From contig OZ241837.1 in the NCBI GenBank assembly GCA_965202615.1, positions 1,096,347-1,160,346 on the forward strand: a DNA stretch of 64,000 nt. Reading direction: 5' to 3'. The position numbers and the translations under genes are program-made. Positions 18,813 through 37,644 of the stretch are shown here, piece after piece; the first letter of the stretch is position 1, and each line of letters begins with the position of its first letter. This stretch comes from Arenicellales bacterium. Lineage in GTDB: Bacteria; Pseudomonadota; Gammaproteobacteria; Arenicellales; JAJDZL01. The notes under the pieces are model-generated. The model saw only the letters and a list, made by a program, of their open reading frames with translations. It did not search any database and was not told where the DNA came from.

Positions 18813-18894
18813 GCTCGCTAAGGCTCTGCTGTATGCTGATTCAACGCTAATTTGATACTATGCGAAATTGACGTTCGGACGCGCGAATCGGCAT

Positions 18895-20939: not shown

Positions 20940-22471
20940 CAGCTCACACCTGTTTCTAGAAGACCACCCATCAGCGCACCAATTCTTTCTTCCGTTACCT
21001 CATCTGGTGTCAGAATGCCGGTAATCTCTCCTGCGCACATGACGGCAATTCGGTCAGCGACAGTCATGATGTGCTCAAGTTCGGTCGAAATGTACAGAAT
21101 CGCCTTGCCAGCGGCACGTTGCGACATGACGGTACGCTGCACCGACTCGATTGCGCCGACATCCAGACCCTTGCAGGGTTGCATTACAACGAAAATGAGA
21201 GGTTCGCATTCGACTTCACGCGCAAAGATGAGTTTCTGTTGATTGCCACCTGAGAGAAACCTTGCTTTCTGGTCAATCGACTGCATCCGCACGTCATAAC
21301 GATCAACCCAGTCCTTGGCCGTTTTGCGGATTTGCGAGTTCTGTATTATGCCTTTCGCGCAAAAAGGCGGCACATTGAAATCCCGCAGCACTGCGTTTTG
21401 CGCGACGGAGAAATCCAGTACCAAGCCGGTGTGCTGACGGTCTTCTGGCACGTAGGAAAGACGATGATGGTGTCGCCGCGCATGTACCGAACTCTTGGTG
21501 ACGTCTTGTCCATTGATTGTCACACTGCCGGCTTCAGGCGTCAGCAGCCCTGCAACCACTTTCGCGAGCTCTGCCTGGCCATTGCCGTCCACTCCGGCGA
21601 TGCCCAGCACTTCTCCAGCGCGTATCTCGATCGAAACACCTTTCAGCGCCTCTACACCTCGCTGATCGCGGACATGCAACCCCTCAGCCTTGAACACGAC
21701 TTTGCCTGGCTTGCTGTTGCCGCTGTCCATGCGTTCATGCACCACCTCGCGGCCGATCATCAAGCGGGCCATTTCCTTCGCGCTGGTATCTGCTACGCTG
21801 ACCTCAGCGCTGACCTTGCCGTGCCGCATGATGGTGACAACATCAGCTACTGCTTTAACTTCGTTGAGCTTGTGAGTAATGAAAATGACTGTCTTGCCGC
21901 TATCTCGCAGTCGCTTGAGCCCTTCGAGGAAACTTGAAATTTCATTTGGCGCCAGAACACTTGTGGGCTCATCGAATATGATGATTTCTGCGTCCCGGAA
22001 CAGAACCTTCAGAATTTCAATCCGTTGCTGCATGCCCAAAGGCAGTTTCCAAATCTCCTGATGCGGATCTATGTCAAATTCGAACTGCTCGGACAGGGCA
22101 GTTAACTTGCGCGCAATCGCCTTCAGGTTCAGCGATAGTCCCTGACCACGCAGGCCAAGTACAACGTTTTCAGCGACAGTCAAGGTATCGACCAGCATGA
22201 AGTGCTGATGAATCATACCGATACCCAATTCCATAGCGGCTCTCGGTGAAGGGATGATGGTCGTCTTTCCGTTCAGGACAATCTCACCTTCGTCCGGCTG
22301 ATACAGTCCAAATAGAACGTTCATCAGCGTTGTCTTGCCAGCCCCGTTCTCGCCGAGAATGGCATGTATCGTCCCGTCTTCGATCTCCATATCAATGCGA
22401 TCAAGAGCCCGAAACGTCCCGAACAGTTTTGAGATTCCGCACAAAGAAAGAGCCATGGCACTCGTTCCCAT
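20939..22471 (-). CDS. ABC transporter ATP-binding protein with duplicated ATPase domains
   Basis: It has two nucleotide-binding domains: GENGAGKTTL plus LPLGMQQRIEILK...IIIFDEPT, and a second LSGGNQQKLIFARE...VVMQPCKGLDVGA. Confidence 0.85.
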   Translation of the reverse strand: MGTSAMALSLCGISKLFGTFRALDRIDMEIEDGTIHAILGENGAGKTTLMNVLFGLYQPDEGEIVLNGKTTIIPSPRAAMELGIGMIHQHFMLVDTLTVAENVVLGLRGQGLSLNLKAIARKLTALSEQFEFDIDPHQEIWKLPLGMQQRIEILKVLFRDAEIIIFDEPTSVLAPNEISSFLEGLKRLRDSGKTVIFITHKLNEVKAVADVVTIMRHGKVSAEVSVADTSAKEMARLMIGREVVHERMDSGNSKPGKVVFKAEGLHVRDQRGVEALKGVSIEIRAGEVLGIAGVDGNGQAELAKVVAGLLTPEAGSVTINGQDVTKSSVHARRHHHRLSYVPEDRQHTGLVLDFSVAQNAVLRDFNVPPFCAKGIIQNSQIRKTAKDWVDRYDVRMQSIDQKARFLSGGNQQKLIFAREVECEPLIFVVMQPCKGLDVGAIESVQRTVMSQRAAGKAILYISTELEHIMTVADRIAVMCAGEITGILTPDEVTEERIGALMGGLLETGVS

Positions 22472-22535
22472 GGTGCTTGTTTTGGTAATGAGTAGCGCAG
22501 AAAGGCGCGCTCAAGCGCGCCTTTCTGCACTGGAG

Positions 22536-23504
22536 TCAGTGGGTTACAACATTTCCGGCGATGATATTTTCGATCAGTGTGGTGACTTCTGCCTGAGTAT
22601 CCGCTGATACACGGTCAGCATAGCTTCCTATGCGAGCTGCTACGGGTGTTTCCAAGCCGAAAATATAGGATATGCCTTCAATTTCTCCCGCCTTCGCTTT
22701 GGAAATCACCTCTCCCAAACCGCTGCGCATATCAAATATTGCAGACTGTATTATCGTGTCGGGCCAGTCCGCGATTGCGTCATAGTAGATGCCAATACCC
22801 ATGGCACCTTTTTCCTTGACGCCTTGGAGGCTGCCTACAACTGCATTGTCCATTGAGGGAAAAATGACATCCGCGCCTTGACTGATCAGATTCAGTGCTG
22901 CTTCTTTCCCCTTAGCAACATCATCCCAGTCATTAGTCCAGGCGGTGAACACCTCGCCGTCCGGACGTGCAGCCATGAAGCCCTTTTCAAAGCCCTGGCC
23001 AAGCTGAACGTAGAACAGCAGTTTCTGCGCGCCGACGTATCCAGCCTTGCCTGTCTCGGAAGTTTTACCGGAAATGTATCCCATGACATAGCCCAGTCCG
23101 GGGAAGTCGAAACTCATCGTAGAAACATTGCCGCCTGGTTCGGTTCCATTGACGATCACAAACTTGGTATCCGGAAATCGTTTTGCTACGCGGGTGACAG
23201 ATTCTTGAAACTCGCCGCCGTGACCGATCACCAGGTTATAGCCTCGACGCGCATAATCAGACAGAGCCTCAGGTTGGTCGGGCTGGGCTGTCTTTTCGGA
23301 ATATGCAAATTCAATGCCGAGCTCGCTGGCTGCGCGCTCAACGCCTTCGTAGCCAGCCTGATTGAAGGATTTGTCAGTGATTACCCCCGGCAAAACAATT
23401 GCGACCTTGAAATCGTCGGCAAGTGCCGAAGTTGCCGCAACGAAAGCAAGCAACACTACCGTTGCTAGCATTTTGCACGTTAAAAACATTCGCTGTACAA
23501 ACAT
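22536..23504 (-). CDS. BMP-family (PnrA/Med-like) substrate-binding lipoprotein/periplasmic protein
   Basis: A signal peptide is followed by FKVAIVLPGVITDKSFNQAGYEGVERA, the characteristic BMP-family N-terminus. The exact start is uncertain because there are several in-frame Met codons. Confidence 0.8.
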   Translation of the reverse strand: MFVQRMFLTCKMLATVVLLAFVAATSALADDFKVAIVLPGVITDKSFNQAGYEGVERAASELGIEFAYSEKTAQPDQPEALSDYARRGYNLVIGHGGEFQESVTRVAKRFPDTKFVIVNGTEPGGNVSTMSFDFPGLGYVMGYISGKTSETGKAGYVGAQKLLFYVQLGQGFEKGFMAARPDGEVFTAWTNDWDDVAKGKEAALNLISQGADVIFPSMDNAVVGSLQGVKEKGAMGIGIYYDAIADWPDTIIQSAIFDMRSGLGEVISKAKAGEIEGISYIFGLETPVAARIGSYADRVSADTQAEVTTLIENIIAGNVVTH

Positions 23505-23758
23505 CGTTTCCCTCCAGTTTATTTGATTGTGTAGACTACTATATATATATCAATGAGTGTGCCGTCACCACGATTTGTATTTGTTTTAAGCGAAAATTTC
23601 AGTCGAACGGAAATCAACCGACATCTTGGTGGCTGGCGAAGACTCTTCAACTTTGATCTCGTTGAATTTATGAATTCAGCAAACAATGTAAAGCAGACTT
23701 GCGCGGAACTAATACACGCAAGACAACTCAAATATTGTGAGCACTTAACTCCAAATTA

Positions 23759-25114
23759 GTGGATTCCGATTTGCACACCACGGCCATACAAATTTTAATT
23801 GCAGCACTTAGTTTGCTCCCAGCCGCTTCGGCAACGGCCGACAGTGGTGCGGCTCTGTCTTTTTCAGTGCTTGAGTGGTGGGTGGTCATCGGTTCGTTGT
23901 TTATTGGTGTATTGATTTCCGCATCAAGGGAGCGTCAGCCGCTGCAATCAAATCAGGTCGGTCTTGATAGTGAAATAGCAAATGGCTCAGACACTCGCCA
24001 ACAAAGCAAAACCGCACAAACGCGCAAAATGTTGTACTTTGCCGCGAGTGGAGTATTTGCGGGATTGCTCGCTTCAATTTCAACGCTATTCCCAGCAGTC
24101 TGTACTTTGGGGACTGTTGCAATTTTGTTGTTTGGTTTTGCCGTTTCTCTACTGGGTGTGTCTCCAATCAGCCTCTCCTCGATCCTACAATCCGATCACT
24201 TGGAGCGATTTTCAGACAGTTGGACTTCAGGATTGGTCGTTGCTTTAATTCTGGCATCTGTTACATCTTGGGTAATCAATCCTTTGATTGGCACCAGTCT
24301 TGTCGACAGCGATTTTCAACTGGTTGCTGGCATTATCGCAGGATTGACAGTCGGTGCAATCATTGGCGAGCTTTGGACCAGCCATGCGAAAACTGACAGT
24401 GCAGACGATTTTCGGCGATTGATGCGTCGTTTTTCCGCAGTTGCCATGATTGCCTTGGCAATATACGTGGCTGGCAGAATTCCTGAGGTTCCCGTGTTGT
24501 TTCTCTGGGCTGTATTTCTAGTGGTTCTCTCAGTGTACTGTGGCGCAACGACCCGACTCGCGCAGCCCGCCAGCGGTGAGCGACAACTGCTTAAGGGTTT
24601 GGGTGTTGTGATGCTGATTTTCGGAGTGATAGGACTGACCAGCGCTTCGGTCGGCTCCCGAAATTTGAACGAGTCATTCACCCAATTTTCGGCCTTTATA
24701 ACCGCGGGTGGGGGACTCGACGGTACCCTGTCCGGGGAATCCAAGTCAGAGGTGTTCGTTTACGCCAGGTCCATGGATGAGTTTGACCAAATGCTTGCGC
24801 AGGCGAAGCAAGCAGGTAAACCGGCTGCAGTAGATTTGTATGCTGACTGGTGTCTCGACTGTAAACGAATGGACCGAACAACATTCAAAGAACCGTCAAT
24901 CGTAACTGAATTGACCGAAACCTTTGACAGCATCAAAATAGATATTACCGATCCCAACGATAGATTTGGCCGTGCGTTAAGAAAGCGCTTCAAGGTGTTC
25001 GGCCCGCCTGCACTGCTGTTCTTTGACCGAGACGGAAATGTTTCGGCAAACTCTCCTGTCTATGGCTACCTTGATGTTGACGAATTGACCGTTCTGCTCG
25101 CGCAGGTCAAGTAG
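23759..25114 (+). CDS. dsbD: DsbD-family thiol:disulfide interchange protein (membrane region plus C-terminal thioredoxin domain; atypical N-terminus)
   Basis: The C-terminus GKPAAVDLYADWCLDCKRMDRTTF...FGPPALLFFDRDG parallels E. coli DsbD-gamma ([24 protein letters not shown]...LGLPTILFFD). Several hydrophobic helices lie upstream. I see no recognisable DsbD-alpha domain. The start codon is GTG. Confidence 0.65.
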   Translation: MDSDLHTTAIQILIAALSLLPAASATADSGAALSFSVLEWWVVIGSLFIGVLISASRERQPLQSNQVGLDSEIANGSDTRQQSKTAQTRKMLYFAASGVFAGLLASISTLFPAVCTLGTVAILLFGFAVSLLGVSPISLSSILQSDHLERFSDSWTSGLVVALILASVTSWVINPLIGTSLVDSDFQLVAGIIAGLTVGAIIGELWTSHAKTDSADDFRRLMRRFSAVAMIALAIYVAGRIPEVPVLFLWAVFLVVLSVYCGATTRLAQPASGERQLLKGLGVVMLIFGVIGLTSASVGSRNLNESFTQFSAFITAGGGLDGTLSGESKSEVFVYARSMDEFDQMLAQAKQAGKPAAVDLYADWCLDCKRMDRTTFKEPSIVTELTETFDSIKIDITDPNDRFGRALRKRFKVFGPPALLFFDRDGNVSANSPVYGYLDVDELTVLLAQVK

Positions 25115-25621
25115 AAATTGTGTCCTACGGACTATTGAAGCGTTGACTTCATTCAGGAAATAGATTACCGAATCTGCCTAGTCCTACAACAAGTTTGATA
25201 GTTGTGAAGAACCTGAAAATTATTGCTTCTCCTGAAGACTCTATTTTCCTAAACCAACTAGACAATTGACCGTCACGAAACGATAAAGAAAATTGTAGAA
25301 TACTTGACTAAAGTTGACGATGCTCGCAGAAAACTGTGCGGTTGTTGCACAGCGCACACGGGAGGCTTGAGAACAGTTTAGTACTATGAAAAGTTGAATG
25401 AAACTTGATGGGGAATGCCAAATTGCAGTCAATTCAAAACGACTACCAAAGACCTACAGGGCAGAGTACAAGATCGCTACTCCCGAACAGGTTGCAAAAT
25501 ACTCTTACTACATAATCCATTAAAGTCAGATTATTCCAAAAGATCACAAATGTGGAAATGAAATTTTTGGACGTCAATCTAAATATTCAACTCCCAAAAT
25601 GAAATACAAGGTTACCCTACT

Positions 25622-26392
25622 ATGGCGACACTTAAATTAGATGAATGGCAAGTCGAGAATTTGCGGTTCACTGTTTTTCCAACGGAGAGTGTTAGTATGG
25701 CCGTTCGATTTTGGGAGTCTCTGATTGGAAGTCCCCCAGATGATCAACACAGCCAACCAAATAAGGGTTTATTTACGGAGGAGGGTACATACGAAGATAC
25801 CAAACTTGGAGTTCAAATTGCTCCCCAAAGAATTGATTGGTTACTATACCCAGATATCCAAAAAATTAGTGGAACATTACCAACTTTTGGTAATTACGAA
25901 TCTTGGAGTCAGCGATTCCTCGAGTTGATGCTGAAATGGTTAGCGGAGTGTCCCTCTGTAAACAGATTGGCATATGGTTGTATACTTTTGCACCCGTGTA
26001 ACAATTTAAATGTTGCTTATGAAACACTCAAACCTTTACTTCCAACTGTCTCGATTGGAGATGGTAATTTTTCCGATTTGAGTTTCAGAATAAACCGTCC
26101 GAGAACAAAAAAGTTTGGAAAAGAGGACGTGAATTTCAATCGCCTTTCCACTTGGTCGGCTAGGGATTTGATTTCTGGCAATATTCAAATTTCAAGTGAT
26201 ATTCGGGAAACTGGGCATAACCTGAATATACCAATTCATCAAATTGCATCGCAGAGTTGTATTAGGCTGGAATCAGACATTAATACTACGCACTATAGAA
26301 ACGAATCCTTTGCCAAAAATAAACTTCCACATATTTTCGAAACACTTGTGGAGTACGGCAATGAAATTGCTAGCAATGGAGATGTTCCATGA
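25622..26392 (+). CDS. Hypothetical protein A of a three-gene operon (no family recognised)
   Basis: 256-aa ORF in an AT-richer islet. Its stop overlaps the start of the next gene (ATGA at 26389-26392). There are no TM segments and no motif I can assign. Confidence 0.6.
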   Translation: MATLKLDEWQVENLRFTVFPTESVSMAVRFWESLIGSPPDDQHSQPNKGLFTEEGTYEDTKLGVQIAPQRIDWLLYPDIQKISGTLPTFGNYESWSQRFLELMLKWLAECPSVNRLAYGCILLHPCNNLNVAYETLKPLLPTVSIGDGNFSDLSFRINRPRTKKFGKEDVNFNRLSTWSARDLISGNIQISSDIRETGHNLNIPIHQIASQSCIRLESDINTTHYRNESFAKNKLPHIFETLVEYGNEIASNGDVP

Positions 26393-27300
26393 CTTTTGAT
26401 CGTTCTGCCTCAACAAATTTCGCTGAAGGTTATGAGTTCTTGTCGTTTGAAATTTTCGAAGATTCAAATATGCCTTGTTTCTCTGGAGTTATAAGCGGTC
26501 AATATTCACCATTTAATGAGTTGCCTGAATTCAATACTGTATTCCTACGGTATTTCTCAGGCCAACCCGAAGCAGATAGTTCGAATCAATCTTTTTTGAT
26601 TAGTAGTGAGGGGTTGGACCGAGCGAGTTTTGCTATTGTTAAAGTTCACTCTGGTCAACTCCGAGAAATTTCTCGCAATGCAATTTTAGGCATTGGCTTC
26701 AACAGTGAATTTTCGGATAAACTTCAAAGGTCATGGAAAAATTTGTTTATTGATCAATCGCCGGAGTTCCACGCTCCATTAATTTCCTATTATTCTGACC
26801 AATCCGAAGCAGATAGTCCGAATCAAACTTTTTTGACTAGTAGCGAGAGGTCAGGTCGCACAAGCTTTGCTATCGTCGAAAAGCGTATTGATCAACTCTA
26901 CGAAGTTGCTCGAAATGAAGTTTTCAAAGTCGGTTACAACAGTCAGTTTTCAAGTGATTTACAAAGGTTATTTGAGCAATTCCCTTTTGATGTTATGCGA
27001 ATTTTGAAAAAAATATTGGCTTCAAATAAAAAGGATACAGAAATTTTGGCAGAAATACTGCGCTGGGTATCACGTCAGGAATCGCTTTCGGTCAGGAATT
27101 TGGTGATCGATATTCTGTCCACTGGGCTTTATCACCAGTCATCTTTAGTGAGAGATGCGGCAGCGAATGGTATTGCCGATATCGACGAAAAAATTGCTGT
27201 TGGACACATTGAACTTGCAATCGATAGAGAAAAAGTCCCTGAACTTCGCACTGATATGCGAGATCTTTTGCGCTCTTTATCTGATAACTTGAGTAAATGA
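26389..27300 (+). CDS. Hypothetical protein B: internal 79-aa tandem duplication plus a HEAT/ARM-like C-terminus
   Basis: 303-aa ORF with overlapping start and stop on both sides. The repeat YFSGQPEADSSNQSFLISSEG..SFAIV... recurs as YYSDQSEADSPNQTFLTSSER..SFAIV.... The C-terminal segment LVIDILSTGLYHQSSLVRDAAANGIADI looks like a HEAT repeat. Confidence 0.6.
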   Translation: MTFDRSASTNFAEGYEFLSFEIFEDSNMPCFSGVISGQYSPFNELPEFNTVFLRYFSGQPEADSSNQSFLISSEGLDRASFAIVKVHSGQLREISRNAILGIGFNSEFSDKLQRSWKNLFIDQSPEFHAPLISYYSDQSEADSPNQTFLTSSERSGRTSFAIVEKRIDQLYEVARNEVFKVGYNSQFSSDLQRLFEQFPFDVMRILKKILASNKKDTEILAEILRWVSRQESLSVRNLVIDILSTGLYHQSSLVRDAAANGIADIDEKIAVGHIELAIDREKVPELRTDMRDLLRSLSDNLSK

Positions 27301-27788
27301 TTCTTAGAAAACTGAGTCAGCGGAGAAATTGGGATAAAGAAAAGTGGCTAGGGTCAGATGAAGTGCAAGGAAATGCTCTTCATTGTCTTCTACCAAAATG
27401 CAACCGATTATCCATATTTAAAATTGACCAAAAATTACAGCGAGAGCGAACGGTTGCTGCCTTGGCGCTGACGAGAGATAACCTCTCGTACTTGGATCTG
27501 GCTGAATTTAATGAAGAATTGATTAGTTCTTTGGATATTCGTACTGAAGAGGTGCTCGCGAATACTCCCGATTATGAAGTTAACGGGTGGCACATAGATC
27601 TTGTAGAATTGACGGTGTCCAAGATTGCAAGGATTGCTATATCGATTCGAAACGAGGGAAAAGTAATGCGCTATCCCCAAGGAGATGTGATTAAATTCAT
27701 TTCAAATTCCATTCGAGATAAGTGCATCAATCTGGAGGAAATTAATCCACAAATGCAATCCTCATTGAGGAAAAGAAACGTGCTCTGA
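27297..27788 (+). CDS. Hypothetical protein C of the three-gene operon
   Basis: 163-aa ORF whose ATG overlaps the stop of gene B (ATGA at 27297-27300). I recognise no motif. Confidence 0.55.
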   Translation: MILRKLSQRRNWDKEKWLGSDEVQGNALHCLLPKCNRLSIFKIDQKLQRERTVAALALTRDNLSYLDLAEFNEELISSLDIRTEEVLANTPDYEVNGWHIDLVELTVSKIARIAISIRNEGKVMRYPQGDVIKFISNSIRDKCINLEEINPQMQSSLRKRNVL

Positions 27789-28070
27789 GATGGAGTTTTT
27801 AGGTTAGTTTGATCCTTTATGACATCAAATGAGAATTGCGATTGAACCGAAAGATGAATTCGCATAAACCACCGCGACACAATCTTTCTCATTTGCCCCT
27901 CCACTTACATCTCACAGTCGGTGACACCACGCTTGTAATTGTCGCTTTTCACAAACACGTCGTCAACGCACCAGCTGATTACGCATTGCATCCCTGCAAT
28001 TCGATGTCAGACGCAATTTTGCGCTCAATGTCGCACACTGCCCTGTCGATTTTTCACAGCAATTGAGCAA

Positions 28071-28548
28071 ACCAGTGCTTTGATCGGTTCCCGGAATTTT
28101 AACGAGTCATTCACTCTATTTATCAGCCTTAATTACCGCGGGTGGGGGACTCGACAGTGCCCTGTCCGGGGAATCCGAATCAGAGGTGTTTGTTTACGCT
28201 AGGTCCATGGATGAGTTTGACCAAATGCTTGCACAGGCGAAGCAAGCGGGTAAACCGGCTGCAGTAGATTTGTATGCTGACTGGTGTCTCGACTGTAAAC
28301 GAATGGACCGAACAACATTCAAAGAACCGTCAATCGTAACTGAAATGACTGAAACCTTTGACAGCATCAAGATTGATATTACCGATCCCAACGATAGATT
28401 TGGCCGTGCGTTAAGAAAGCGCTTCAAGGTGTTCGGCCCGCCTGCACTGCTGTTCTTTGATCGAGACGGAAACGTTTCGGCAAACTCTCCTGTCTATGGC
28501 TACCTTGATGTTGACGAATTGACCGTTCTGCTTGCACAGGTCAAGTAG
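28071..28548 (+). pseudogene. Partial duplicate of the dsbD 3' end (copy B), retaining an intact thioredoxin-domain reading frame
   Basis: 28071-28655 aligns with 24638-25220. The 5' part carries a 1-nt indel relative to dsbD near 28120-28135. From the GTG at 28186 the 120-codon frame is intact and differs from DsbD at one residue (L to M). Confidence 0.8.
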
Positions 28549-28880
28549 AAATTGTGTCCTACGGACTATTGAAGCGTTCACTTCATTCAGATAATCAGAT
28601 TTCAGGGTCTGTGCAGCCCACAACATGTTGAATTGTTTCGAAGAACCTGAATTTTCCTGATAATCCATAATGCGCCGTTTACCAAGACGATCTCAAACAT
28701 TCCATAATTTAACCCTGCAAATTAGAAATTTCATTTCTAATTTGCAGGCATATTGAGCCACATCTCGCCAGTCCCATTCTTAATGCATTGGTAACCATGA
28801 CAACTTGCTGGCTCCCCAGTAGTTGGTGCAAGTTGAGAAGCGTTCGTGATTGAAAATTGGAAGGTTCTGCCGATCGGTAT

Positions 28881-29279
28881 TCAGATTAAATCTTCAAGGT
28901 CCACATTCAATGATCTGGCAAGTTTGGCCATAGTCTGGGTTGGTCCGGTACGTCTGCCTGTTTCAATCTGTGAAAGATAGACTGTATTGATTCCAACCTC
29001 CTGTGCCAGCTGTTTCTGTGTTATTCCGCGATGAACACGGTAGAACTTGACCGCGTTTTCTCCAGCTAGCAAACGGTCTGCTACATCAATTGGAAACGAC
29101 TCTTCATCAGCAGACTTGGCACTGTCATATAGCTCTTCGTCGCTTAGGTATAAATCGGAATGGAATTCGCTCAAACGCTTATACAGGTGCCATGGGTTAA
29201 CGGCATAAGCTGGTTGTCCTTTTTCATCGAGAATAACTTGCGTTTTAGTCAATTTAGTTCTCCTACTGTTTATAGACAT
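28881..29279 (-). CDS. XRE-family HTH protein with a Phd/YefM-like N-terminal segment (antitoxin/regulator-like)
   Basis: The C-terminus RVHRGITQKQLAQEVGINTVYLSQIETGRRTGPTQTMAKLARSLNV is a classic XRE HTH. The N-terminus QVILDEKGQPAYAV.PWHLY resembles Phd-type antitoxins. ATG at 29279. Confidence 0.7.
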   Translation of the reverse strand: MSINSRRTKLTKTQVILDEKGQPAYAVNPWHLYKRLSEFHSDLYLSDEELYDSAKSADEESFPIDVADRLLAGENAVKFYRVHRGITQKQLAQEVGINTVYLSQIETGRRTGPTQTMAKLARSLNVDLEDLI

Positions 29280-29626
29280 TGCTTCTGAGACTGATTCGCA
29301 ATACCTCAATTTCCAGAATCTAATTTTCTAGGTCGAAGATTACGCACCTTGAAGTCACTAGGCAATAGTTGCTTCGTATTCGCGTCCTTCTTCAAAACTA
29401 CCTGCATTTGCATGGAACTCGAACGGCAGTCGAGAACTTAACCTTCAAGAAAGCAATGATCAAATCAGTGATAGCTAGTTAGCACGAAATCCACTCTCGT
29501 GCACTTGGGAGGGAATCAATGAGGCGATCTCAATGAATTCCAGTGGTCTAGCAATTTTTTTCGGAGTCTATCAAAAGCTTGCTTCTCCTTAGTGTTCAAA
29601 TCCTTTTCGTTCGCAACAGTCTGCAA

Positions 29627-29809
29627 TTAGCCAATAACAATTTCAACTGCTGCCGTAAAAGGTAAATCCTCTAGACGACGAAGAATGGCGTCGAATGATC
29701 CGGCGAGTGACGTAAGCAGTGTATGAACGGATTTGCCGGGAAAACTGGCTGTGGGATGAGGAATATTCATAGTAGTTTCGCAAATTACGTATACCATTTG
29801 ATAGTTCAA
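29627..29809 (-). CDS. Small hypothetical protein (60 aa) coupled to the lipoprotein gene
   Basis: Its start overlaps the lipoprotein stop by 4 nt (29806-29809). There is no other support. Confidence 0.3.
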   Translation of the reverse strand: MNYQMVYVICETTMNIPHPTASFPGKSVHTLLTSLAGSFDAILRRLEDLPFTAAVEIVIG

Positions 29810-30471
29810 TTTTTTAGCATAAATGCGTAAGCATATCCAGCACTTTCTATGTGTGCAGAACCTACGTTGGACAACAGAATTTCTATTTTTCTACGACGAG
29901 ACAGTTCAAATTCTGTGTGCTCAATTGGCCTACTGTCAACAAAAGCACTTAATACGGTGACAATTTCAGTTTGCTTTTCACTATGCAAAATTAGTTTAAC
30001 GTCCGAGTTAGCTATGTTTAGCGACTGATCAAACTCATCGGAAACTCGTTCATTCAGAACTTCAAATTTATCCAAGTCGGTCGCGAAAAATACATCTATT
30101 CCCATATTCGATTCCACAGCTACTATGCCTAAAAGCGAATTTGCTTGATTCCATGAATTAAATCCATTCACAATAGGAATATCTGCATCGAGTACGAGGT
30201 ACGTATCAAAATCTTTCCGTACACATCCTCTTGTTGAAATTTTAGAGATAAATCCCTTCAATAAATTAGCTATTTGAGTTGCATTTTTTTTGCACTCTTC
30301 ATTAGAAATCATTTCTAATTTCAATGTCGCTAATGTCACCAAATTAGCATTTTCATTTGCGACAACATCACGTAAATCACTTGTATACAAATCTGAAGTT
30401 ACATTGAAATCACACGCTGACAACACCGTAATCGCGAAAATTAGCAGTATTGAATTCCATTTCTTTTTCAC
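29806..30471 (-). CDS. Hypothetical lipoprotein
   Basis: It has a signal peptide with a lipobox, MKKKWNSILLIFAITVLSAC|DF. The 221-aa ORF lies 12 nt downstream of the membrane-protein gene. Confidence 0.6.
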   Translation of the reverse strand: MKKKWNSILLIFAITVLSACDFNVTSDLYTSDLRDVVANENANLVTLATLKLEMISNEECKKNATQIANLLKGFISKISTRGCVRKDFDTYLVLDADIPIVNGFNSWNQANSLLGIVAVESNMGIDVFFATDLDKFEVLNERVSDEFDQSLNIANSDVKLILHSEKQTEIVTVLSAFVDSRPIEHTEFELSRRRKIEILLSNVGSAHIESAGYAYAFMLKN

Positions 30472-30483
30472 AACGTCTTTACC

Positions 30484-30858
30484 TCATAAACTTTGTTTTC
30501 CTTCAGAGGAAGAACTGTTTTTTGAACTCTTAACCTTAGGAGCAAAAATTATCAAAATTCCTCCAACTAGTGCTAGCGCCATACAGATAGCAACAAATGT
30601 TCCACCAAGCATTGCACCTGCTAAGGAACTAACTACAATCAAGACACCAACTATTTTTCTTTCTACACCAACTGCTACTGCACCTAGAACTATCGTAAGA
30701 AAAGAAAATAGGAGTCCTCCCCAACCAAAGCCTATGAGGGTGTCTGCTCCTTCTGCCTCGAGTGCGCTACCCAACCCTCCAAATAACAATGTAATTACAG
30801 CGGGAAAAACGCCAAAAATTCCTGCTACGAGCGCAACGATCCCTCCTGCTTTTTTCAT
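30484..30858 (-). CDS. Small glycine-rich integral membrane protein
   Basis: 124 aa with four hydrophobic Gly-rich segments (GGIVALVAGIFGVFPAVITLLFGGLG...) and a polar Ser/Lys tail. Confidence 0.55.
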   Translation of the reverse strand: MKKAGGIVALVAGIFGVFPAVITLLFGGLGSALEAEGADTLIGFGWGGLLFSFLTIVLGAVAVGVERKIVGVLIVVSSLAGAMLGGTFVAICMALALVGGILIIFAPKVKSSKNSSSSEGKQSL

Positions 30859-31487
30859 AGTTTTCTTACCTGAATTGTTTGAAAATTCGACGCCAAAGGC
30901 GTCGGGTTATTGCAAACAAATTCCAAGTAACAGGAAAGTAGTTCTCGCCTATTCGCTCGGTGAGAGTAGCTAATTCTCACTATAAAAGCTGTCGTATTCA
31001 GCGAGTAACCCGACCTAGCGGGAACTCGGAATTTGATTGCAGGAAAAATTTTAGAGCAAATCCACGGTGAGAACAACTAAATTTGCTCATCAGGTACAGG
31101 CGAGTCGATCAGGTGGCCAGTGCGGTGATTTCGCTGTAGCTTTTGTGCGCAGTTGCTGCAACAGCTTCAGTTTGTACTAGTGTTGCTAGGTGCAACTACA
31201 AAGTGTGCAACCGCTTTGCTGAATCGGTAAATTCTTGGATGTAGATGTATTGTTTACATCGAGTGGTTTTCTGTGGGGTTTGTTTTGGGGAATACGCGCT
31301 GTGGTACCTGATTTGTTTTTCAGTCGGTTCCCGAAAGTCGTATTCCGAATGAAAACAGACTGAGTGTCTCATTTATACCTGAGCCACTACGAACCATTTG
31401 CAAATTGAGCGCGATTATTCATTGACAGTTTATAGAATCTGAAAGTTGCTTCTCACGGTTTCAAGTTTATGTGCAACTTCAAATTTC

Positions 31488-31705
31488 GGTGAGTTGCTCT
31501 TGAAAAATGAAATTGCGGGAGATAGCTGGCAACCGATCCGTCGTGTTGCTTGTGTCGCCATGATTGTCCTTGCAACATATGTGGCTGGCAGGATTACTGA
31601 GGTTCCCGTGTTGTTTCTCTGGGCTGTATTTCCAGTTGTCCTCTCAGTGTATTGTGGTGCAACGACCCGACTGGCGCAGCCCGCCAGTAATGAGCGGCTA
31701 CTGGA
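31488..31705 (+). pseudogene. Fragment of a diverged dsbD membrane-domain segment (copy C)
   Basis: The translation GELLLKN...VAMIVLATYVAGRITEVPVLFLWAVFPVVLSVYCGATTRLAQPASNER parallels DsbD residues encoded at about 24367-24585. The nucleotide identity is obvious across 31557-31700. Confidence 0.8.
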
Positions 31706-31907
31706 AACGGAATTCACGGCGTGGAGTGAGGCACTGGCTTATGGTGAAAACCGCCAGCAAACAGACTTCCCCATCGTCCTGCCATTCACCGCGCCAGTAG
31801 TCGACTCTACCACTCTTAGGTAAAATTAACGCAAACTTTAATTTGACAAACGGAGGCTAAAACTCATTCAATAGACACAAACAATCGCGAGAAAACGCCT
31901 GAATCAA

Positions 31908-31993
31908 AGCGAAATGTTCAAATTGATGCGAAAGGGTGTTCAAATAAAATGCGAATCCGTGTACAAATTCTTGCGAATATGCATAGTGATCTG
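31908..31993. repeat. Iteron-like direct repeats (3-4 units, about 22-bp period)
   Basis: The units are GCGAAATGTTCAAATTGA, TGCGAAAGGGTGTTCAAATAAAA, TGCGAATCCGTGTACAAATTCT and TGCGAATATGCATAG. The GCGAA cores sit at 31909, 31928, 31951 and 31973. Confidence 0.5.
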
Positions 31994-32040
31994 AACTTTG
32001 TCTGTATAGAATGCGTAAAGGATTTTGCATTTGCACAAAC

Positions 32041-32145
32041 CCTCTTGTCTATGGCTACTTTGGTGTTGACGAATTGAAGTGACCTTTCTGCTTGAGAAAT
32101 TGAAGTAGAATTTGTCCTATGGACAATTGAATAGTGAAGCAGTTT
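32041..32145 (+). repeat. Diverged copy of the dsbD 3' terminus plus downstream tail (copy D)
   Basis: CCTCTTGTCTATGGCTACTTTGGTGTTGACGAATTGA...GAAGTAGAATTTGTCCTATGGACAATTGAA aligns with 25052-25150 (CTCCTGTCTATGGCTACCTTGATGTTGACGAATTGA...CAAGTAGAAATTGTGTCCTACGGACTATTGAA). Confidence 0.75.
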
Positions 32146-32300
32146 AATTGAAACTGTGATGCTCCGTTGTCTTGGGCACCACCTACAGTCCGATCAAAAA
32201 TCAGTCTAATGCGTAGGATTGACTACACAGGCTGGAAACAATCCCTTGCTGCATAGTGGCATTGTTCGATTTACAGCCTTGATAAGGAGATAAGACCGAT

Positions 32301-34244
32301 ATGGAAGTCAGCAGTCAGATCAACAATGAACTCAAATCATTAGATGAGATATTCGGACAAGGAAAACGCGTTTTCAGAATCCCTGATTACCAGCGTGGTT
32401 ACTCCTGGGAAGAGCAACAGCGCACCGACCTTTTAACTGATATTGAATACCTAATCAAAAGTGGATACCAGTACCGTCACTATACTGGAACTATCGTTGC
32501 TTCCTTGAACGAGAAGGAAACCAGTGAGAGAGACGGGCAATACGAGATTTTTGATATTGTAGATGGGCAGCAAAGATTGACATCCTTGATATTACTCCTG
32601 TCTGTAATTTGCCGATTAGTAAAGAAATCCACGGAAAAGAGCAAGTTCGAGCATACAGAGATTTTCTCGGCATTCATCCAGGGCGGCCCTGAAGGAAATA
32701 CGGTGCACAAATTGAATTTAGGGAAAGACCAGGACAAAATCTTTAAATCCTTGGTGGAGGAAGGTACTGCCACGGAAGCATCCACCACCTCCAAGTCCGA
32801 CCAAAATCTCAAAGATGCGGTTATCCAATACCAAGACTGGCTGAATAGCCAAGATATCGATGATGTATTGAGGTGTGTTCGTGAAAACCTTGGGTTTCTG
32901 TTCTACGCTCCAGAGAATAACAAAGAGATTGGCATTATGTTCGAAGTGATAAACAACCGGGGTAAGGCTCTGAGTGAACTCGAAAAAATCAAGAACTATC
33001 TTATTTACTATGCCGATAAAAATGACAAGCGTGATATCAGGATACACGTGAATTACTCATGGCCAGAAATCTTAAGCAATCTGAACAAAATTGAATACAC
33101 CAGCAATGAAAATGAGGACCGATACCTGCGAAATTGTTGGATTGTGTTTATGGATACACATAAGAGCCGGAGTCACAATGTATATGACAACCTCAAACTA
33201 GAGTGGCCACCGGACAGCGAAAACACTAAAAAAATCATCGAGTTCATTAAGTTTTTGGAATACGCCGCTGATTTTTATGCAAAGTATCTGAAAAGGGAAG
33301 GCGTGACGGATACACATGAAAAATATTGGTTGGAGCGAATCAGCTGCCATCCGGCAGCTGCTTCCATAACACCGCTAATTTTGGCCGTTTTCGGTAGAGT
33401 CAAAGATCAGAACGATAGGAACGAACTTTTCGAACTACTGGAAAAATTGAATTTTCGATTCTATGGAACAGGAATTGCAGGTAGGTCGGATTCCGGGCAA
33501 GGAGACCTCTTCTGGTATGCCAACAAATTTTTCAATTATTTTGGAAAAGAAGAAGACGGAAAAGAAATTGGTGTCCCATGGCTGAAGGAGGAGTTGACAA
33601 AATTTATCGATCAACGAGCCAATGACAAGTCTTTCATTGAATACCTTACCCTCGACTTGGATGAAGCAGGAGATTATTACAGCTGGGTTGGTCTGAAATT
33701 TTTCCTTGCAAGTTACGAGGAGCATCTGAGGGAGAAAATAAATGAAAGTATCGACCTTCAACGGATTATGGCATCCAGAAACCCGGATGCACCTAATGAT
33801 TTCTATCATAAAGAACATATTTGGGCGGTGAAAGATCTTCGAATTGAAGACAAGGAAAATTCAGACGTAAATAAACGCAGGTTGGGCAACTTTCTGCTTT
33901 TGAAGGAGAGCTTGAACATTAAGGTAAGTAATAAACCGCCTGAAGAAAAAGTGGAGCTCTATTTCGATGACTGGAAAAATGCTCCTAATACCTTGATGAT
34001 TCGAGAGCTAAAGGAATTATTTGATAAAGCAATAGAATTGGAAGAGGAATCAAAGAATTGGAAACGCAAATCTAAGAATTACTGGCTTAAAGTCTACAAG
34101 CGCTTCCTCGATGGGAGAGAGGAAAAAATGGTAAATTTCGCTTTGAAAAGATGGAAAGTATCTGGACTCAACAGTAGTATTTCAAAGGTAAAGTTAGACA
34201 GCTTGGGTTCTCATAACGAGATATGGTCAAAAAGTGGTGAGTGA
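32301..34244 (+). CDS. GmrSD-family type IV (modification-dependent) restriction enzyme, DUF262 + DUF1524
   Basis: The N-terminus FRIPDYQRGYSWEEQQ...FDIVDGQQRLTS is the DUF262/ParB-like NTPase signature. The C-terminus HKEHIWAV...NKRRLGNFLLL is the DUF1524 His-Me finger pattern. Confidence 0.8.
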   Translation: MEVSSQINNELKSLDEIFGQGKRVFRIPDYQRGYSWEEQQRTDLLTDIEYLIKSGYQYRHYTGTIVASLNEKETSERDGQYEIFDIVDGQQRLTSLILLLSVICRLVKKSTEKSKFEHTEIFSAFIQGGPEGNTVHKLNLGKDQDKIFKSLVEEGTATEASTTSKSDQNLKDAVIQYQDWLNSQDIDDVLRCVRENLGFLFYAPENNKEIGIMFEVINNRGKALSELEKIKNYLIYYADKNDKRDIRIHVNYSWPEILSNLNKIEYTSNENEDRYLRNCWIVFMDTHKSRSHNVYDNLKLEWPPDSENTKKIIEFIKFLEYAADFYAKYLKREGVTDTHEKYWLERISCHPAAASITPLILAVFGRVKDQNDRNELFELLEKLNFRFYGTGIAGRSDSGQGDLFWYANKFFNYFGKEEDGKEIGVPWLKEELTKFIDQRANDKSFIEYLTLDLDEAGDYYSWVGLKFFLASYEEHLREKINESIDLQRIMASRNPDAPNDFYHKEHIWAVKDLRIEDKENSDVNKRRLGNFLLLKESLNIKVSNKPPEEKVELYFDDWKNAPNTLMIRELKELFDKAIELEEESKNWKRKSKNYWLKVYKRFLDGREEKMVNFALKRWKVSGLNSSISKVKLDSLGSHNEIWSKSGE

Positions 34245-34259
34245 CAAGTATTTTGCGCG

Positions 34260-34347
34260 GCGTATCTGGACGTTGAGCATGAAAGTGTCGCCCACCCGTA
34301 ACTGAATTTGTTCAGACTGACCAGTCTGTTTGCGCAGGTCAAGTAGA
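34260..34347 (+). repeat. Most decayed copy of the dsbD 3' terminus (copy E), next to ilvA
   Basis: GACTGACCAGTCTGTTTGCGCAGGTCAAGTAGA aligns with 25082-25115 (GAATTGACCGTTCTGCTCGCGCAGGTCAAGTAGA). Upstream, TATCTGGACGTTGAG resembles TACCTTGATGTTGAC. Confidence 0.65.
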
Positions 34348-34608
34348 GAACCGCTTGTCGATAAATATTTCCTTTGGCTACAATACTTGGGACGAACAGC
34401 TGTCAGTCAGATGGTATGCAGAGAATTCCAAGTTAATCTCCCAACTAAAGACATCAATCCGCACTGGCGTTCTCAGTTCTGCGTTGCGTGACTGCTATAA
34501 TTTGCACCAGTCGCTTTCTTTTGAATTTTTCTGGCGATTCAGGAGATCAAGCTTGGCCGATCCACTTTTTTTCATGCACTCTGTTGCTCTAACTCATCGC
34601 TAACCGCT

Positions 34609-36120
34609 TTGGACTCAGATTATCTGCAACGTATTCTGCTGGCGCGGGTTTATGATGTCGCGCAAGACACTGCACTGGACTATGCTTCCAACCTGTCTCG
34701 AAGGTTGAAACACGATATTTGGCTAAAACGCGAAGATCAACAGCCGATTTTCTCCTTCAAAATTCGCGGCGCCTACAACAAAATGTCGCGTATTTCTCCA
34801 AAAGTCTTGAAAAAAGGCGTTGTTGCGGCTTCTGCAGGCAATCACGCTCAGGGTGTTGCGCTGGCTGGCAAAACACTCGGCTGTCCGGTAACCATCTTCA
34901 TGCCCGTTACAAGCCCGGAAATCAAGGTGAAATCAGTGCTCGGACTAGATGCAAAAGTCAAGCTTGTCGGAGACAGCTATGCAGAGGCTGGTGCTGCAGC
35001 CAGTGATTTCTGCAAGCGCAACAAACTTAAGCTGATCCCGCCATACGACGATCCTGATGTCATTGCAGGCAATGGGACGGTTGGACTTGAGATCATGCGC
35101 TCAATGACGGGTAATGTAGAAGCAATTTTTGTGCCGGTTGGCGGCGGTGGCCTGATTGCAGGCGTTGCAGCTTATGTCAAGAGTATCAGCAGTCGAGTAA
35201 AGGTCATTGGTGTCGAACCCATGGATTCCGATGCGATGTGGCAATCTGTTGAAGCGAAAAGGCGCGTTAAGCTGAAAGAGGTTGGAATTTTTGCAGATGG
35301 TGTGGCGGTCAAACAGGTTGGCAAAGAAACTTTCCGTCTAGTTCAAAAATACGTCGATGAGATAGTTCGGGTTGATACAGACGAGATTTGTGCCGCGATC
35401 AAAGATATTTTCGAGGATACCCGCACGATCGTAGAACCTTCCGGTGCACTGGCGGTTGCCGGACTTAAACAATTCTGCGCCAGGTCGAATAGAACCGATA
35501 AAGGTTTCGTTGCGATTAATTCCGGTGCCAACATGAATTTCGATCGATTGCGGCACGTTTCCGAACGCGCTGAAATCGGAGAGCGCCGGGAGGCAATACT
35601 CGCAGTCACAATTCCTGAGCGTCCCGGAAGTTTCCGTCAGTTCTGCTCAACCATCGGTGAGCGGAACATCACTGAATTCAACTACCGTTATGCAGATGCT
35701 GACAGCGCGCATGTGTATGCCGGAATACAAGTCAGCAACCGTGAAGAAGTGTCCAGCATGATCAAGGCACTTGAAGAAAAAAAATATCCGGTCATTGACT
35801 TGACTGACAATGAAATGGCTAAAATTCACGTTAGACACATGGTCGGCGGTCCGGCGCCGAACGCAGAAAACGAAAAAGTCTATCGTTTCGAATTCCCCGA
35901 GCGGCCAGGAGCCTTGCTGGGATTTCTGGAAAAGATGGGCAGTTCCTGGAATATCAGCATGTTTCACTATCGAAACCATGGTACGGATTTTGGTCGGGTT
36001 TTGTGTGGTATACAGGTTCCGTCTGAGGAAATGCCACAGTTCAGAGATTTTCTTAAGATTGTCGGATATCGATACACGGAAGAAACCGATAATCCGGTTT
36101 ATAAAATGTTTTTAACCTAA
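34609..36120 (+). CDS. ilvA: Biosynthetic threonine ammonia-lyase (threonine dehydratase)
   Basis: FSFKIRGAYNKM (PLP lysine motif), ASAGNHAQGVA, and GGGGLIAG are followed by two C-terminal regulatory ACT-like repeats. The start codon is TTG. Confidence 0.9.
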   Translation: MDSDYLQRILLARVYDVAQDTALDYASNLSRRLKHDIWLKREDQQPIFSFKIRGAYNKMSRISPKVLKKGVVAASAGNHAQGVALAGKTLGCPVTIFMPVTSPEIKVKSVLGLDAKVKLVGDSYAEAGAAASDFCKRNKLKLIPPYDDPDVIAGNGTVGLEIMRSMTGNVEAIFVPVGGGGLIAGVAAYVKSISSRVKVIGVEPMDSDAMWQSVEAKRRVKLKEVGIFADGVAVKQVGKETFRLVQKYVDEIVRVDTDEICAAIKDIFEDTRTIVEPSGALAVAGLKQFCARSNRTDKGFVAINSGANMNFDRLRHVSERAEIGERREAILAVTIPERPGSFRQFCSTIGERNITEFNYRYADADSAHVYAGIQVSNREEVSSMIKALEEKKYPVIDLTDNEMAKIHVRHMVGGPAPNAENEKVYRFEFPERPGALLGFLEKMGSSWNISMFHYRNHGTDFGRVLCGIQVPSEEMPQFRDFLKIVGYRYTEETDNPVYKMFLT

Positions 36121-36142
36121 TTATCCAGTCGCAGAGGAGAGA

Positions 36143-36367
36143 ATGAATACTTCAACAGATGGTGTGCAATTTATCGGACTTTACGTCATTCCAGGCGAAG
36201 GAACGGTCGCAGCGATCAGGGTCAATGCTGAGACCCAACTGTTCGATAAGCAGGGCTTGGAATGGAAAATTGTAGAAAAGAAAAAGATCGGTGCAGATAC
36301 CAGCGTTGAAGAACAGGCGCTCGCCCAGGTCAAGCAAAATGATGATTCCGGTAACGGATTCTACTGA
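36143..36367 (+). CDS. Small hypothetical protein (74 aa)
   Basis: The ORF has GGAGAG 5 nt upstream of the ATG, directly downstream of ilvA. I recognise no homology. Confidence 0.35.
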   Translation: MNTSTDGVQFIGLYVIPGEGTVAAIRVNAETQLFDKQGLEWKIVEKKKIGADTSVEEQALAQVKQNDDSGNGFY

Positions 36368-36389
36368 TCACTCGCCATTTGCATAAGCG

Positions 36390-37124
36390 ATGATTTGCGC
36401 CGCTCCCTGGCCAAAATCGTCGAACCCACCACCACTTCTGCCGGGAGAGGTTCATCTGTGGTCAGCTTCTCTGGTTGCCGGCAAAGAACAGTTTGAGCTG
36501 TACGAGAAATTCATGGACATGCGGGAGAAAGCCCGCGCCGACCGCTACTTGATGGACCTGTCCCGCACTCGCTTTATCAGCGCACGGGCGATACTCAAGC
36601 AGTTGCTTTCCAAATACACTGGGGGCGATCCTGCCGAAATAAGTTTTCGTCTCGGGCCGCAGGGTAAACCATATTTGCCGGCGAAATCTTCGCCGATGCT
36701 CCAGTTCAACTCGACCGATACGCAAGAAGAAGCGTTGTACGCGTTTTGCCTGGATGCTGAAATTGGCGTCGACATTGAATACAAAACGCGGCAGGTCCGA
36801 CACGAAATCATTGCAAAACGCAAATTGACAAAGCAGGAAAACGATCTGTACCTTGCATGTCCAGAAAGCCAGCGCAAGCAGTATTTTTTATCTTTATGGA
36901 CTCGAAAGGAAGCTTATGGAAAGGCGCTTGGTGTCGGTATCAAGTATCGTCTGAATGAAGTTAACCTGGTATCCGCTGATTCTGCGGATCGCGTAGTGGT
37001 TAGAGACGATGAGGATATTCAGTGGGATGTCGTGCAGGTGGAACCGGCCGCAGACCTGATCGCATGCGTTGTTACCCAGGGAACAGGATGGCGATTGCGC
37101 TGCTTCAGGCTAGAACCGGAGTAA
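36390..37124 (+). CDS. 4'-phosphopantetheinyl transferase (Sfp/EntD type)
   Basis: GKPYL....FNSTDT...IGVDIE...LWTRKEAYGKALGVG matches the PPTase motifs (G.P, (V/I)G(V/I)D, W..KEA..K). Confidence 0.8.
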   Translation: MICAAPWPKSSNPPPLLPGEVHLWSASLVAGKEQFELYEKFMDMREKARADRYLMDLSRTRFISARAILKQLLSKYTGGDPAEISFRLGPQGKPYLPAKSSPMLQFNSTDTQEEALYAFCLDAEIGVDIEYKTRQVRHEIIAKRKLTKQENDLYLACPESQRKQYFLSLWTRKEAYGKALGVGIKYRLNEVNLVSADSADRVVVRDDEDIQWDVVQVEPAADLIACVVTQGTGWRLRCFRLEPE

Positions 37125-37166
37125 GCAAGACTGCGGTCGATTTCCAAATTTCAGGCTGGCGAGAAG

Positions 37167-37634: not shown

Positions 37635-37644
37635 ATGCACATTC

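Follow-up and report, generated by a model that had tools for sequence, protein, structure and literature searches.

A dsbD-like gene end as a probable insertion hotspot for tandem, recombinase-free islets in an Arenicellales bacterium

We analyzed 64,000 nt of contig OZ241837.1 from an Arenicellales bacterium (GCA_965202615.1, positions 1,096,347–1,160,346, forward strand; this whole stretch is hereafter called the window), in which a gene for a DsbD-like protein, here called dsbD, is separated from ilvA by three islets of accessory genes, with pieces of dsbD recurring among them. Our results indicate that in this uncultured lineage the 3′ end of dsbD is probably an insertion hotspot at which islets devoid of a recombinase gene have stacked in tandem, and that this probably took place in two layers, an older one of site-specific integration and a newer one of homologous import from another strain. 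Positions within dsbD are counted backwards from the stop codon throughout (−30, −73, −477, and −727).

Remnants of dsbD in the window and in relatives

We compared the sequence at 23500–25650 with the whole window by blastn, and all matches fell on the + strand:

23759..25114, +, intact DsbD-like gene, the target of the hotspot and copy A; a 451-aa open reading frame (ORF) with a membrane part and a C-terminal thioredoxin domain
28071–28651, +, copy B, matching 24638–25217 (91.9% over 582 nt, E = 0)
31502–31703, +, fragment C, matching 24388–24589 (80.7%, E = 2e-49)
32036–32131, +, fragment D, matching 25047–25139 (78.6%, E = 7e-17)
34318–34347, +, fragment E, matching 25086–25115 (26/30 bases, E = 8e-4)

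A repeat search and tblastn gave results in agreement. An earlier note on this DNA, made from the sequence alone, had claimed that the 3′ sequence of dsbD recurs four times downstream in the same orientation; the three methods agree with this, the coordinates it gave were essentially right, and the E-values bear out the similarity of C, D, and E to dsbD. A 20-mer from the gene end, with up to two mismatches allowed, matched at A, B, and E only, and had no match in 100 shuffles. The DNA between the copies was AT-richer, as had been proposed, with a GC content of 0.40–0.42 vs. 0.50–0.51 in dsbD and its flanks.

Within the DsbD-like ORF, Pfam thioredoxin families matched residues 339–444, while the NCBIfam model for DsbD (PRK00293) covered only residues 227–449, with a score under its cutoff. 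Homologues from relatives, at 89–94% identity, end in the same C-terminus as the window protein, and the copy nearest the gene body is the sole working dsbD end in the array.

Fragment E was supported over 30 nt only, or perhaps 49 nt at 75% identity, so that its dsbD origin stood while the 88-nt extent previously assigned to it did not; the DNA left of 34318 has no similarity to dsbD (z = 1.8). Although weak alone, E is validated by its position, which is collinear with that of the dsbD end in L007, a relative with an empty site: fragment E and the DNA that follows it (34318–37499) are collinear, at 95.6% identity, with the L007 sequence made up of the final 30 nt of dsbD and the intergenic DNA, and this stretch aligns unbroken to L007 11316–14494 and to L009 8312–11492. 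E is thus the ancestral dsbD end, still joined to the ancestral dsbD-ilvA intergenic DNA.

We located ten close relatives (DsbD 70–94% identical) via a protein database and compared their contigs. Nine span the dsbD-ilvA interval, and the contig of the tenth, L010, stops soon after dsbD. Presence/absence polymorphism of this interval had been set beforehand as a test, and the interval proved polymorphic among these relatives:

L007, 259 nt, empty
L005, L006, L008, and L019, ~1200 nt, helix-turn-helix (HTH) gene only
L011 (outgroup), 2032 nt, AAA_14
L018, 2438 nt, AAA_14 and HTH
L009, 2783 nt, AAA_14 and HigBA
Window, 9494 nt, three islets

Empty sites, with dsbD immediately before ilvA, were seen in L007, L001, and L002. 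Distant Arenicellales genomes likewise have dsbD directly before ilvA, followed by the same downstream genes, and ilvA is syntenic in all relatives. The nearest named genomes are Arenicellales metagenome-assembled genomes (DsbD 45%, IlvA 84% identity). Different defence or toxin-antitoxin (TA) cargo, namely GmrSD, HigBA-like, AAA_14/DUF4143, and the three-gene operon, thus occupies the same position between core genes.

A 73-nt stretch of the dsbD end lies on both sides of the L009 islet as a direct repeat (5746–5818 and 8269–8341, 97% identical), whose second copy is 100% identical to window 25043–25115. This repeat stops exactly at the dsbD stop codon, and the DNA beyond the remnant is identical to the post-stop DNA of L007; taking the islet and one copy of the repeat out of L009 therefore yields L007, an empty site with a precise boundary. 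An island flanked by direct repeats of the 3′ end of its target, with the target gene intact, was hence found in L009 and, at D and E, in the window.

Signs of erosion were also found. The AAA_14 gene is cut to 72 nt in the window, L019 has the same 72-nt relic, and in L005, L006, and L008 no AAA_14 gene was called within the interval. The HigB-like toxin is truncated in the window. Losses with two different end points have removed the right arm, the remnant, and 55–80 nt of ancestral intergenic DNA from L005, L006, L008, L018, and L019, and right-hand remnants are kept by L009 and the window only.

Two other features of the relatives' loci are recorded here. A 106-aa ORF antisense to the dsbD end and starting in the islet left end was called in three contigs (L009 5680–6000, L018 11207–11527, and L019 11279–11599, all on the − strand); it has no domain match and may be spurious. 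In L010, a 55-nt repeat inside dsbD (6409–6508) was rejected as biology, as it flanks a run of N that marks a scaffold gap, and the same gap accounts for the truncated 276-aa dsbD gene call in this contig.

The islets, their ends, and the parts of dsbD that matter for the junctions are as follows:

25115–28070, islet 1, between copy A and copy B
25115..25273, +, left end of islet 1, with a conserved ~25-nt motif (AAATTGTGTCCTACGGACTATTGAA) followed by ~135 nt at 75–80% identity to the left end of the HTH islet
28549–32035, islet 2, between copy B and fragment D
28549..28856, +, left end of islet 2, with the motif at 28549–28573
31986..32035, +, right arm of islet 2, 77% identical to L009 8157–8208 by blastn (local alignment z = 11.8 vs. 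shuffles)
32109–34317, islet 3, between fragment D and fragment E
25042..25114, +, final 73 nt of dsbD, found again as short remnants; a candidate recombination core
28071..28548, +, dsbD part of copy B, from −477 to the stop, keeping a 120-aa thioredoxin ORF at 28186–28548

The motif AAATTGTGTCCTACGGACTATTGAA, or a close variant, lies directly after every dsbD end or remnant that precedes an islet, that is, after A, B, and D and in eight relatives, and is lacking at the empty site and in the distant relatives. A scan of these loci found it solely directly after dsbD ends and on the + strand only. The left ends of the GmrSD islet of the window and of the outgroup L011 are two independent cases in which resemblance to the remaining left ends is lost at +25 to +27. 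The DNA 3′ of copy A tracks the left-end family to about +160 at 75–80% identity, and its homology to L005 extends to 25273. The left-end region of islet 2 is collinear with the DNA 3′ of dsbD in L009, L018, L019, L005, L006, and L010.

Fragment D is a ~73-nt remnant of the dsbD end, made up of 39 nt at 90% identity, a 5-nt insertion, and 29 nt at 76%, and followed by the 25-nt motif. Its last 29 nt are in frame and stop at the same place as the gene (VTFLLEKLK* vs. LTVLLAQVK* at the gene end). The left boundaries of the remnants lie at about −73 in D and L009 and at −30 in E. D and E both break at −30, E being unrelated to dsbD before this point and matching from there; this would fit a crossover near −30 with the GmrSD islet bringing its own last ten codons, although over so short a stretch the drop in identity is no more than suggestive. 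When we checked the C-termini of the first 60 homologues retrieved, none ended in a D-type LTFLLEKLK. Since D and the L009 remnant have homologous left flanks (z = 11.8), D represents the right-end junction of islet 2 joined to the left end of islet 3, and so the hybrid junction of a tandem accretion array (right end, core, next left end) is found at D. As to the order of events, D could equally be an older site into which the GmrSD islet was inserted later.

Fragment C proved to be dsbD-derived, as had been proposed, but it is not a copy of the 3′ end: it is an internal piece (residues 211–277, −727 to −525) that sits within islet 2. It has an open frame under relaxed constraint, with a nonsynonymous to synonymous substitution ratio (dN/dS) of 0.46 vs. 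copy A and 0.36–0.72 vs. relatives, and is 90% identical over 150 nt to L006, L007, and L010; the DNA on either side of it does not resemble dsbD. We considered whether C and D could be a single decayed copy and ruled this out, because the 332 nt between them lack dsbD similarity (z = −1.0 vs. shuffles); in addition, the left flank of D matches the right arm of L009. A second HigB relic near C, which would be a sign of a fourth element, was not found by tblastn. C may be the leftover of another long remnant like B.

Copy B is of a different character. Its left ~130 nt are decayed: identity drops to 76% in the first 70 nt, and a frameshift and 4 of the 5 aa changes of the copy lie in this part. 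Its thioredoxin part (423 nt) differs from copy A with a synonymous divergence (dS) of 0.158 and a dN/dS of 0.10. Because these values equal those obtained when A or B is compared with alleles of other strains (dS 0.05–0.28, ratio 0.02–0.15), B is not a decayed local duplicate, and most of it is an ordinary intact-type strain allele. The last 100 nt of B and the next ~90 nt show 0–3 mismatches to L006, L010, and L019, while the DNA after A is ~25% different, and along B the mismatches to these three relatives form a gradient that falls from 10–13% to 0%. Upstream of dsbD (22000–22900), the window is 99–100% identical to L010 (0–2 mismatches per 150 nt), and within dsbD it differs from L010 by 4–11%. 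An attempt to place a sharp crossover point in dsbD from these allele patterns was only partly successful, as the population is a mosaic.

These results modify the earlier suggestion that the copies are progressively more decayed with distance from the gene. This holds roughly, but most of B is undecayed, and it is hard to call E (87% over 30 nt) more decayed than D. The accompanying idea, that each arrival supplies a replacement gene end and displaces the old one distally, was supported, in that most of B behaves as a functional-type allele and the last 29 nt of D are a diverged, in-frame gene end.

A proposed two-layer history and its alternatives

In the first layer, the short remnants (30 nt at E, ~73 nt at D, and the 73-nt repeat in L009) would be attachment-site (att) scars of site-specific integration within the last 30–73 nt of dsbD. 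Each incoming element would carry its own copy of the gene end, and it is because of this copy that the target gene would stay intact. As the recombinase is not in the islets, it would have acted in trans or been lost.

In the second layer, the allele patterns suggest that the newest islet, which holds the three-gene operon and is closed by the 477-nt copy B, was imported from another strain by homologous recombination. The two arms would have been the donor's dsbD and an older, decayed dsbD remnant lying behind the donor islet, both of which could pair with the single dsbD of the recipient. The recipient would have started as an L010-like chromosome with the order dsbD, left end, and HigA. 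By a double crossover, it would have received a donor segment comprising part of dsbD, the gene end, a left end, the operon, and an old remnant starting at −477. The right-hand crossover, between the old remnant and the resident gene, would have placed the resident 3′ end behind the new islet, still joined to the HigA-type islet. An islet lying between dsbD and a dsbD remnant could thus be stacked before the existing content of a recipient without an integrase. Later deletions eroded the islets, affecting the AAA_14 gene and the HigB toxin as well as, in the majority of relatives, the remnant on the right.

Searches for a recombinase agreed with the earlier claim that the array holds none. Neither the array ORFs, nor six-frame translations of five of the array's non-coding stretches (25100–32320), nor the window ORFs scanned yielded a recombinase domain. 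Gene calls for the nine close relatives whose contigs run from dsbD to ilvA include none between these two genes, and no integrase beside an att site was seen in any of these islands. In L019, three tandem tyrosine recombinases lie upstream of dsbD, in place of an ABC transporter operon, and are unlinked to the islets. The junctions at A, B, D, and E do show what is expected of cis-mobilizable elements (CIMEs), with att sites kept and integration and transfer genes lacking.

Known kinds of insertion site were also compared with the array. There are no tRNA or transfer-messenger RNA (tmRNA) genes in the window, which therefore does not hold a tRNA-type site. Nor does the array resemble a Tn7-like or other transposon stack, as there are no terminal inverted repeats, the right ends have no inverted motif, the duplications measure 30–580 nt, and there is no transposase. 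Rfam found no family in the array, the only hit being a 6S RNA outside it; promoter and terminator scans showed no enrichment over shuffles, and no terminus-type skew turnover was seen in the window.

We also looked for the core and the left end beyond the relatives. In the JGI metagenomes, a DsbD protein scan gave no match; a 33-nt core pattern had no match there or in IMG/VR, and the left-end motif was not found in IMG/VR. The lineage of the window is not represented in these collections. A BLAST search of a phage collection with the core and left end returned only chance-level 40-nt matches, to Acinetobacter phages, and a plasmid search with the copy-B core and left end returned none.

Several points weigh against the two-layer history. 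The sample is small, at ten close relatives. Neither an integrase or excisionase nor an attP-bearing element or circular junction came to light anywhere, and we infer site-specific recombination only from its scars. On the left, the repeats begin at different points (−30, about −73, −477, and −727 for C) and do not point to a single fixed att core, and fragment C is left unexplained. The last 30 nt of dsbD (25085–25114) hold an inverted repeat, TTGACC-14 nt-GGTCAA, which was read from the sequence, is not statistically compelling, and could be due to chance. The extra divergence in the last 29 nt of D (7/29 vs. 4/39) is not significant by a rough estimate. With regard to the second layer, the allele mosaic in dsbD is noisy, for example at 24393–24542, and the left crossover of the import can be located only loosely; furthermore, the map would look no different if an element that had newly picked up 477 nt of dsbD had inserted site-specifically.

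The main alternative is that recombination did everything: the dsbD-ilvA junction would be a passive hotspot, the islets would be exchanged between strains via flanking homology, and the dsbD fragments would be scars of occasional illegitimate joins, made either by homology-facilitated illegitimate recombination or by Campbell-type insertion of circularised fragments, with no part played by a site-specific recombinase. The lack of a recombinase in ten loci and in the window ORFs scanned speaks for this, as do the varying left ends of the repeats (−30, −73, −477, and −727), allele patterns that point to frequent recombination, and a possible 7–8-nt microhomology, GATTTT(T)C, at the junction between islet 1 and copy B; the left-end motif could, moreover, travel with each imported dsbD end. 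On the other hand, the stop codon is the exact end point of the repeat in L009, and the empty site amounts to a precise loss; each of the three right-hand joins lies within the dsbD end and none elsewhere downstream; two independent left ends diverge at the same point (+25 to +27); and the variant gene end in D retains its frame and stop. A 30-nt stretch at 76% identity is also too short and too diverged for RecA-type pairing. We therefore regard this explanation as unlikely, if worth serious consideration.

A more far-reaching possibility, which we consider quite unlikely, is that the dsbD end and the 25-nt motif together form a dedicated site for a recombinase encoded elsewhere, so that the islets would be true recombinase-free cassettes gathered and stacked behind a protein-coding gene, and the locus a defence collection akin to integrons or to integrative mobile elements exploiting Xer (IMEX), with the remnants doubling as homology arms by which whole cassettes could pass from strain to strain through plain recombination. 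A cassette system in which the dsbD end and the motif are a portable site for a chromosomally encoded host recombinase, and the islets are recombinase-free by design instead of by decay, would account for the absence of a recombinase from the islets of every strain, for a conserved motif at each islet start in a single orientation, for an array that grows beside a functional gene end, and for a cargo of defence and TA genes. However, there is no integron-type integrase beside dsbD and no integrase in the window ORFs scanned, the core and motif do not fold as single-stranded DNA any better than shuffles (z −0.5 to −0.9), and there is no dif-like site of the kind exploited via Xer, the best match to the 28-mer dif of E. 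coli having 10 mismatches and being located elsewhere. The right ends tell against it too, for the only match among them is that between islet 2 and L009, with islets 1 and 3 resembling neither islet 2 nor one another, and the loss of the right-hand remnant in most relatives suggests decay rather than an active system. We judge such a cassette system to be very unlikely.

Finally, local duplication, or an artefact in which the assembler joined strains at a shared repeat, is highly improbable: although the source is metagenomic and L004, a contig of the same strain, starts inside copy C, a sign that these repeats do interrupt assembly, A and B are as far apart as between-strain alleles and are under purifying selection, the left ends after them are ~25% different, the unique junctions (cargo to −477; right arm, D, motif, and GmrSD) are not shared between strains and gave an assembler no reason to jump, and L004 independently carries C, D, GmrSD, E, and ilvA in this order at 100% identity.

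Cargo of the islets and neighbouring genes

The cargo differs from islet to islet, as had been described, and Pfam and PADLOC confirmed this picture of three unknown ORFs in the first, DUF7424 and membrane proteins with an HTH gene in the second, and GmrSD in the third:

25622..27788, +, cargo of islet 1, a candidate defence module whose three ORFs overlap and encode 256, 303, and 163 aa
28785–28856, +, 72-nt relic of an AAA_14/DUF4143 gene (19-aa relic by tblastn)
28881–29309, −, HigA-like HTH antitoxin or regulator (Pfam HTH_3; phrog_7241 regulator, 7e-27; HigA 88.6% identical by tblastn)
29266–29343, −, RelE/HigB-like toxin relic of 26 aa with an in-frame stop (tblastn)
29627..31076, −, extra islet 2 cargo that the relatives lack (DUF7424 ORF, small membrane protein, and two short ORFs)
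29806–30471, −, DUF7424 lipoprotein-like ORF (Pfam DUF7424, 2e-21)
30484–30858, −, small membrane protein in the extra block of islet 2
32301..34244, +, islet 3 cargo, GmrSD-family type IV restriction enzyme (Pfam GmrSD_N, 4e-34, and GmrSD_C)
34609..36120, +, ilvA, threonine dehydratase, the right-hand neighbour of the hotspot (Pfam PALP and Thr_dehydrat_C)
L012 3900–6021 and L013 1717–3774, homologues of the islet 1 operon in metagenome contigs

None of the three ORFs of islet 1 had a match in Pfam, PADLOC, or NCBIfam. A collinear operon was present at 41–47% aa identity in six other contigs (L012–L017), where its neighbours include AbiEii, SIR2 (SIR2_2), an antitoxin-like (MqsA-like) gene, and other TA and insertion sequence genes, making the operon a reasonable candidate for an undescribed defence system. 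An AlphaFold2 model of the first ORF (pLDDT 86) gave no convincing PDB match and no recombinase fold. By eye, we also spotted an internal repeat of ~60 aa in the middle protein.

In islet 2, the toxin that corresponds to the HigB relic is represented in L009 by orf86, RelE-like at 6e-16. The extra cargo matched phrog_3832 and phrog_6780, both families of unknown function, and window 29349–31985 had no counterpart in any relative compared. PADLOC assigned the GmrSD gene of islet 3 to HEC-06, Orf5, and SspE-like.

A second defence cluster lies at window 305–5434, with an EcoRII-C domain protein (305–1519), a McrB-like AAA_5 ATPase (2182–4221), and a McrC-family protein (4157–5434). The region upstream of dsbD (window 17910–23504) is also variable: a polysaccharide deacetylase and a Bmp-type ABC transporter operon occupy it in the window, L005, L008, L010, and L018 and are lacking in L007, L009, and L011. 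The same place holds Cas3-like, Cas_GSU0053, and Cas_GSU0054 genes in L006 (1016–7612) and, in L019 (4048–9670), the three tandem tyrosine recombinases mentioned above, which resemble “recombinase in trio” elements. Adjoining this region is a 552-aa NERD-domain and helicase protein (16010–17668, −), which is kept in relatives and whose NCBIfam matches are weak, to helicase or HelD-like families only.

On the other side, an EVE-domain protein (37167–37640, −; PF01878 in the relatives' annotation) is found just 3′ of the hotspot in all relatives. The 6S RNA (38263–38447, −; Rfam RF00013, 60.5 bits) lies between a 5-formyltetrahydrofolate cyclo-ligase gene and the relatives' zapA region, which is the usual ssrS-ygfA arrangement. 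Further along, a single 1021-aa ORF (58989–62054, +) unites the domains of the alpha and the beta subunit of glycyl-tRNA synthetase, and is thus a fused GlyQS.

Comparison with known systems

Empty, single-islet, eroded, and triple-stack forms of this locus coexist in one natural population, and together they offer a step-by-step record of how a defence island is built up, while adding a protein-coding gene, the DsbD-like gene, to the known insertion targets. The locus also suggests, as a modest new twist, that leftovers of the target gene can act as homology arms, enabling islets to stack by ordinary recombination, and such arms could help to explain defence hotspots that have no mobility genes.

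Defence hotspots flanked by core genes, such as those of Pseudomonas aeruginosa and E. coli, have a fixed position and varied cargo, often without mobility genes, and their exchange is thought to be homologous. In those hotspots, exchange between the two flanking core genes replaces the cargo, whereas here the remnants of the left-hand gene allow stacking and leave readable scars. At icd in E. coli, phage 21 and e14 integrate in the 3′ end of a protein-coding gene and supply a diverged, functional end, leaving the original end as a distal fragment, much as is proposed for the islets; unlike the islets, they are prophages with their own integrase and do not form tandem stacks.

The closest likeness in kind is to CIMEs and tandem accretion, as described for the ICESt1/ICESt3-related islands at the 3′ end of fda in Streptococcus thermophilus (PMC5704250). 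Shared features are a target at the 3′ end of a protein gene that stays intact, a tandem stack, hybrid att sites, and the loss of integration and transfer genes with attL and attR kept. In contrast to CIMEs, no element with a cognate integrase is known here, the repeats measure 30, 73, and 477 nt, the newest join looks homologous, and the islets are tiny (2–3.5 kb), with no relaxase or oriT.

The genomic islands at ssrA in Dehalococcoides (PMC3146451) similarly form tandem, low-GC arrays 3′ of one gene, with short direct repeats and an element-side motif, and some of them, without an integration module, were proposed to be cis-mobilizable. There, however, the target is a tmRNA gene, the repeat is fixed at 20 bp, and many islands have a serine-recombinase module beside attL, whereas the target here is protein-coding, the islands have no recombinase, and the repeat length varies. 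In the tycheposons of Prochlorococcus (bioRxiv 10.1101/2020.12.28.424599), repeated integration also pushes older elements inward, leaving partial copies of the target and degenerate elements with adaptive cargo; these elements differ in carrying their own tyrosine recombinase and in targeting mostly tRNA genes, neither of which is seen in this array.

In keeping with the earlier note, a full-text literature search found no description of dsbD as an integration site or hotspot. The array is a known kind of structure, a tandem accretion of integrase-less islets, in a target gene and a lineage that are new as far as could be searched.

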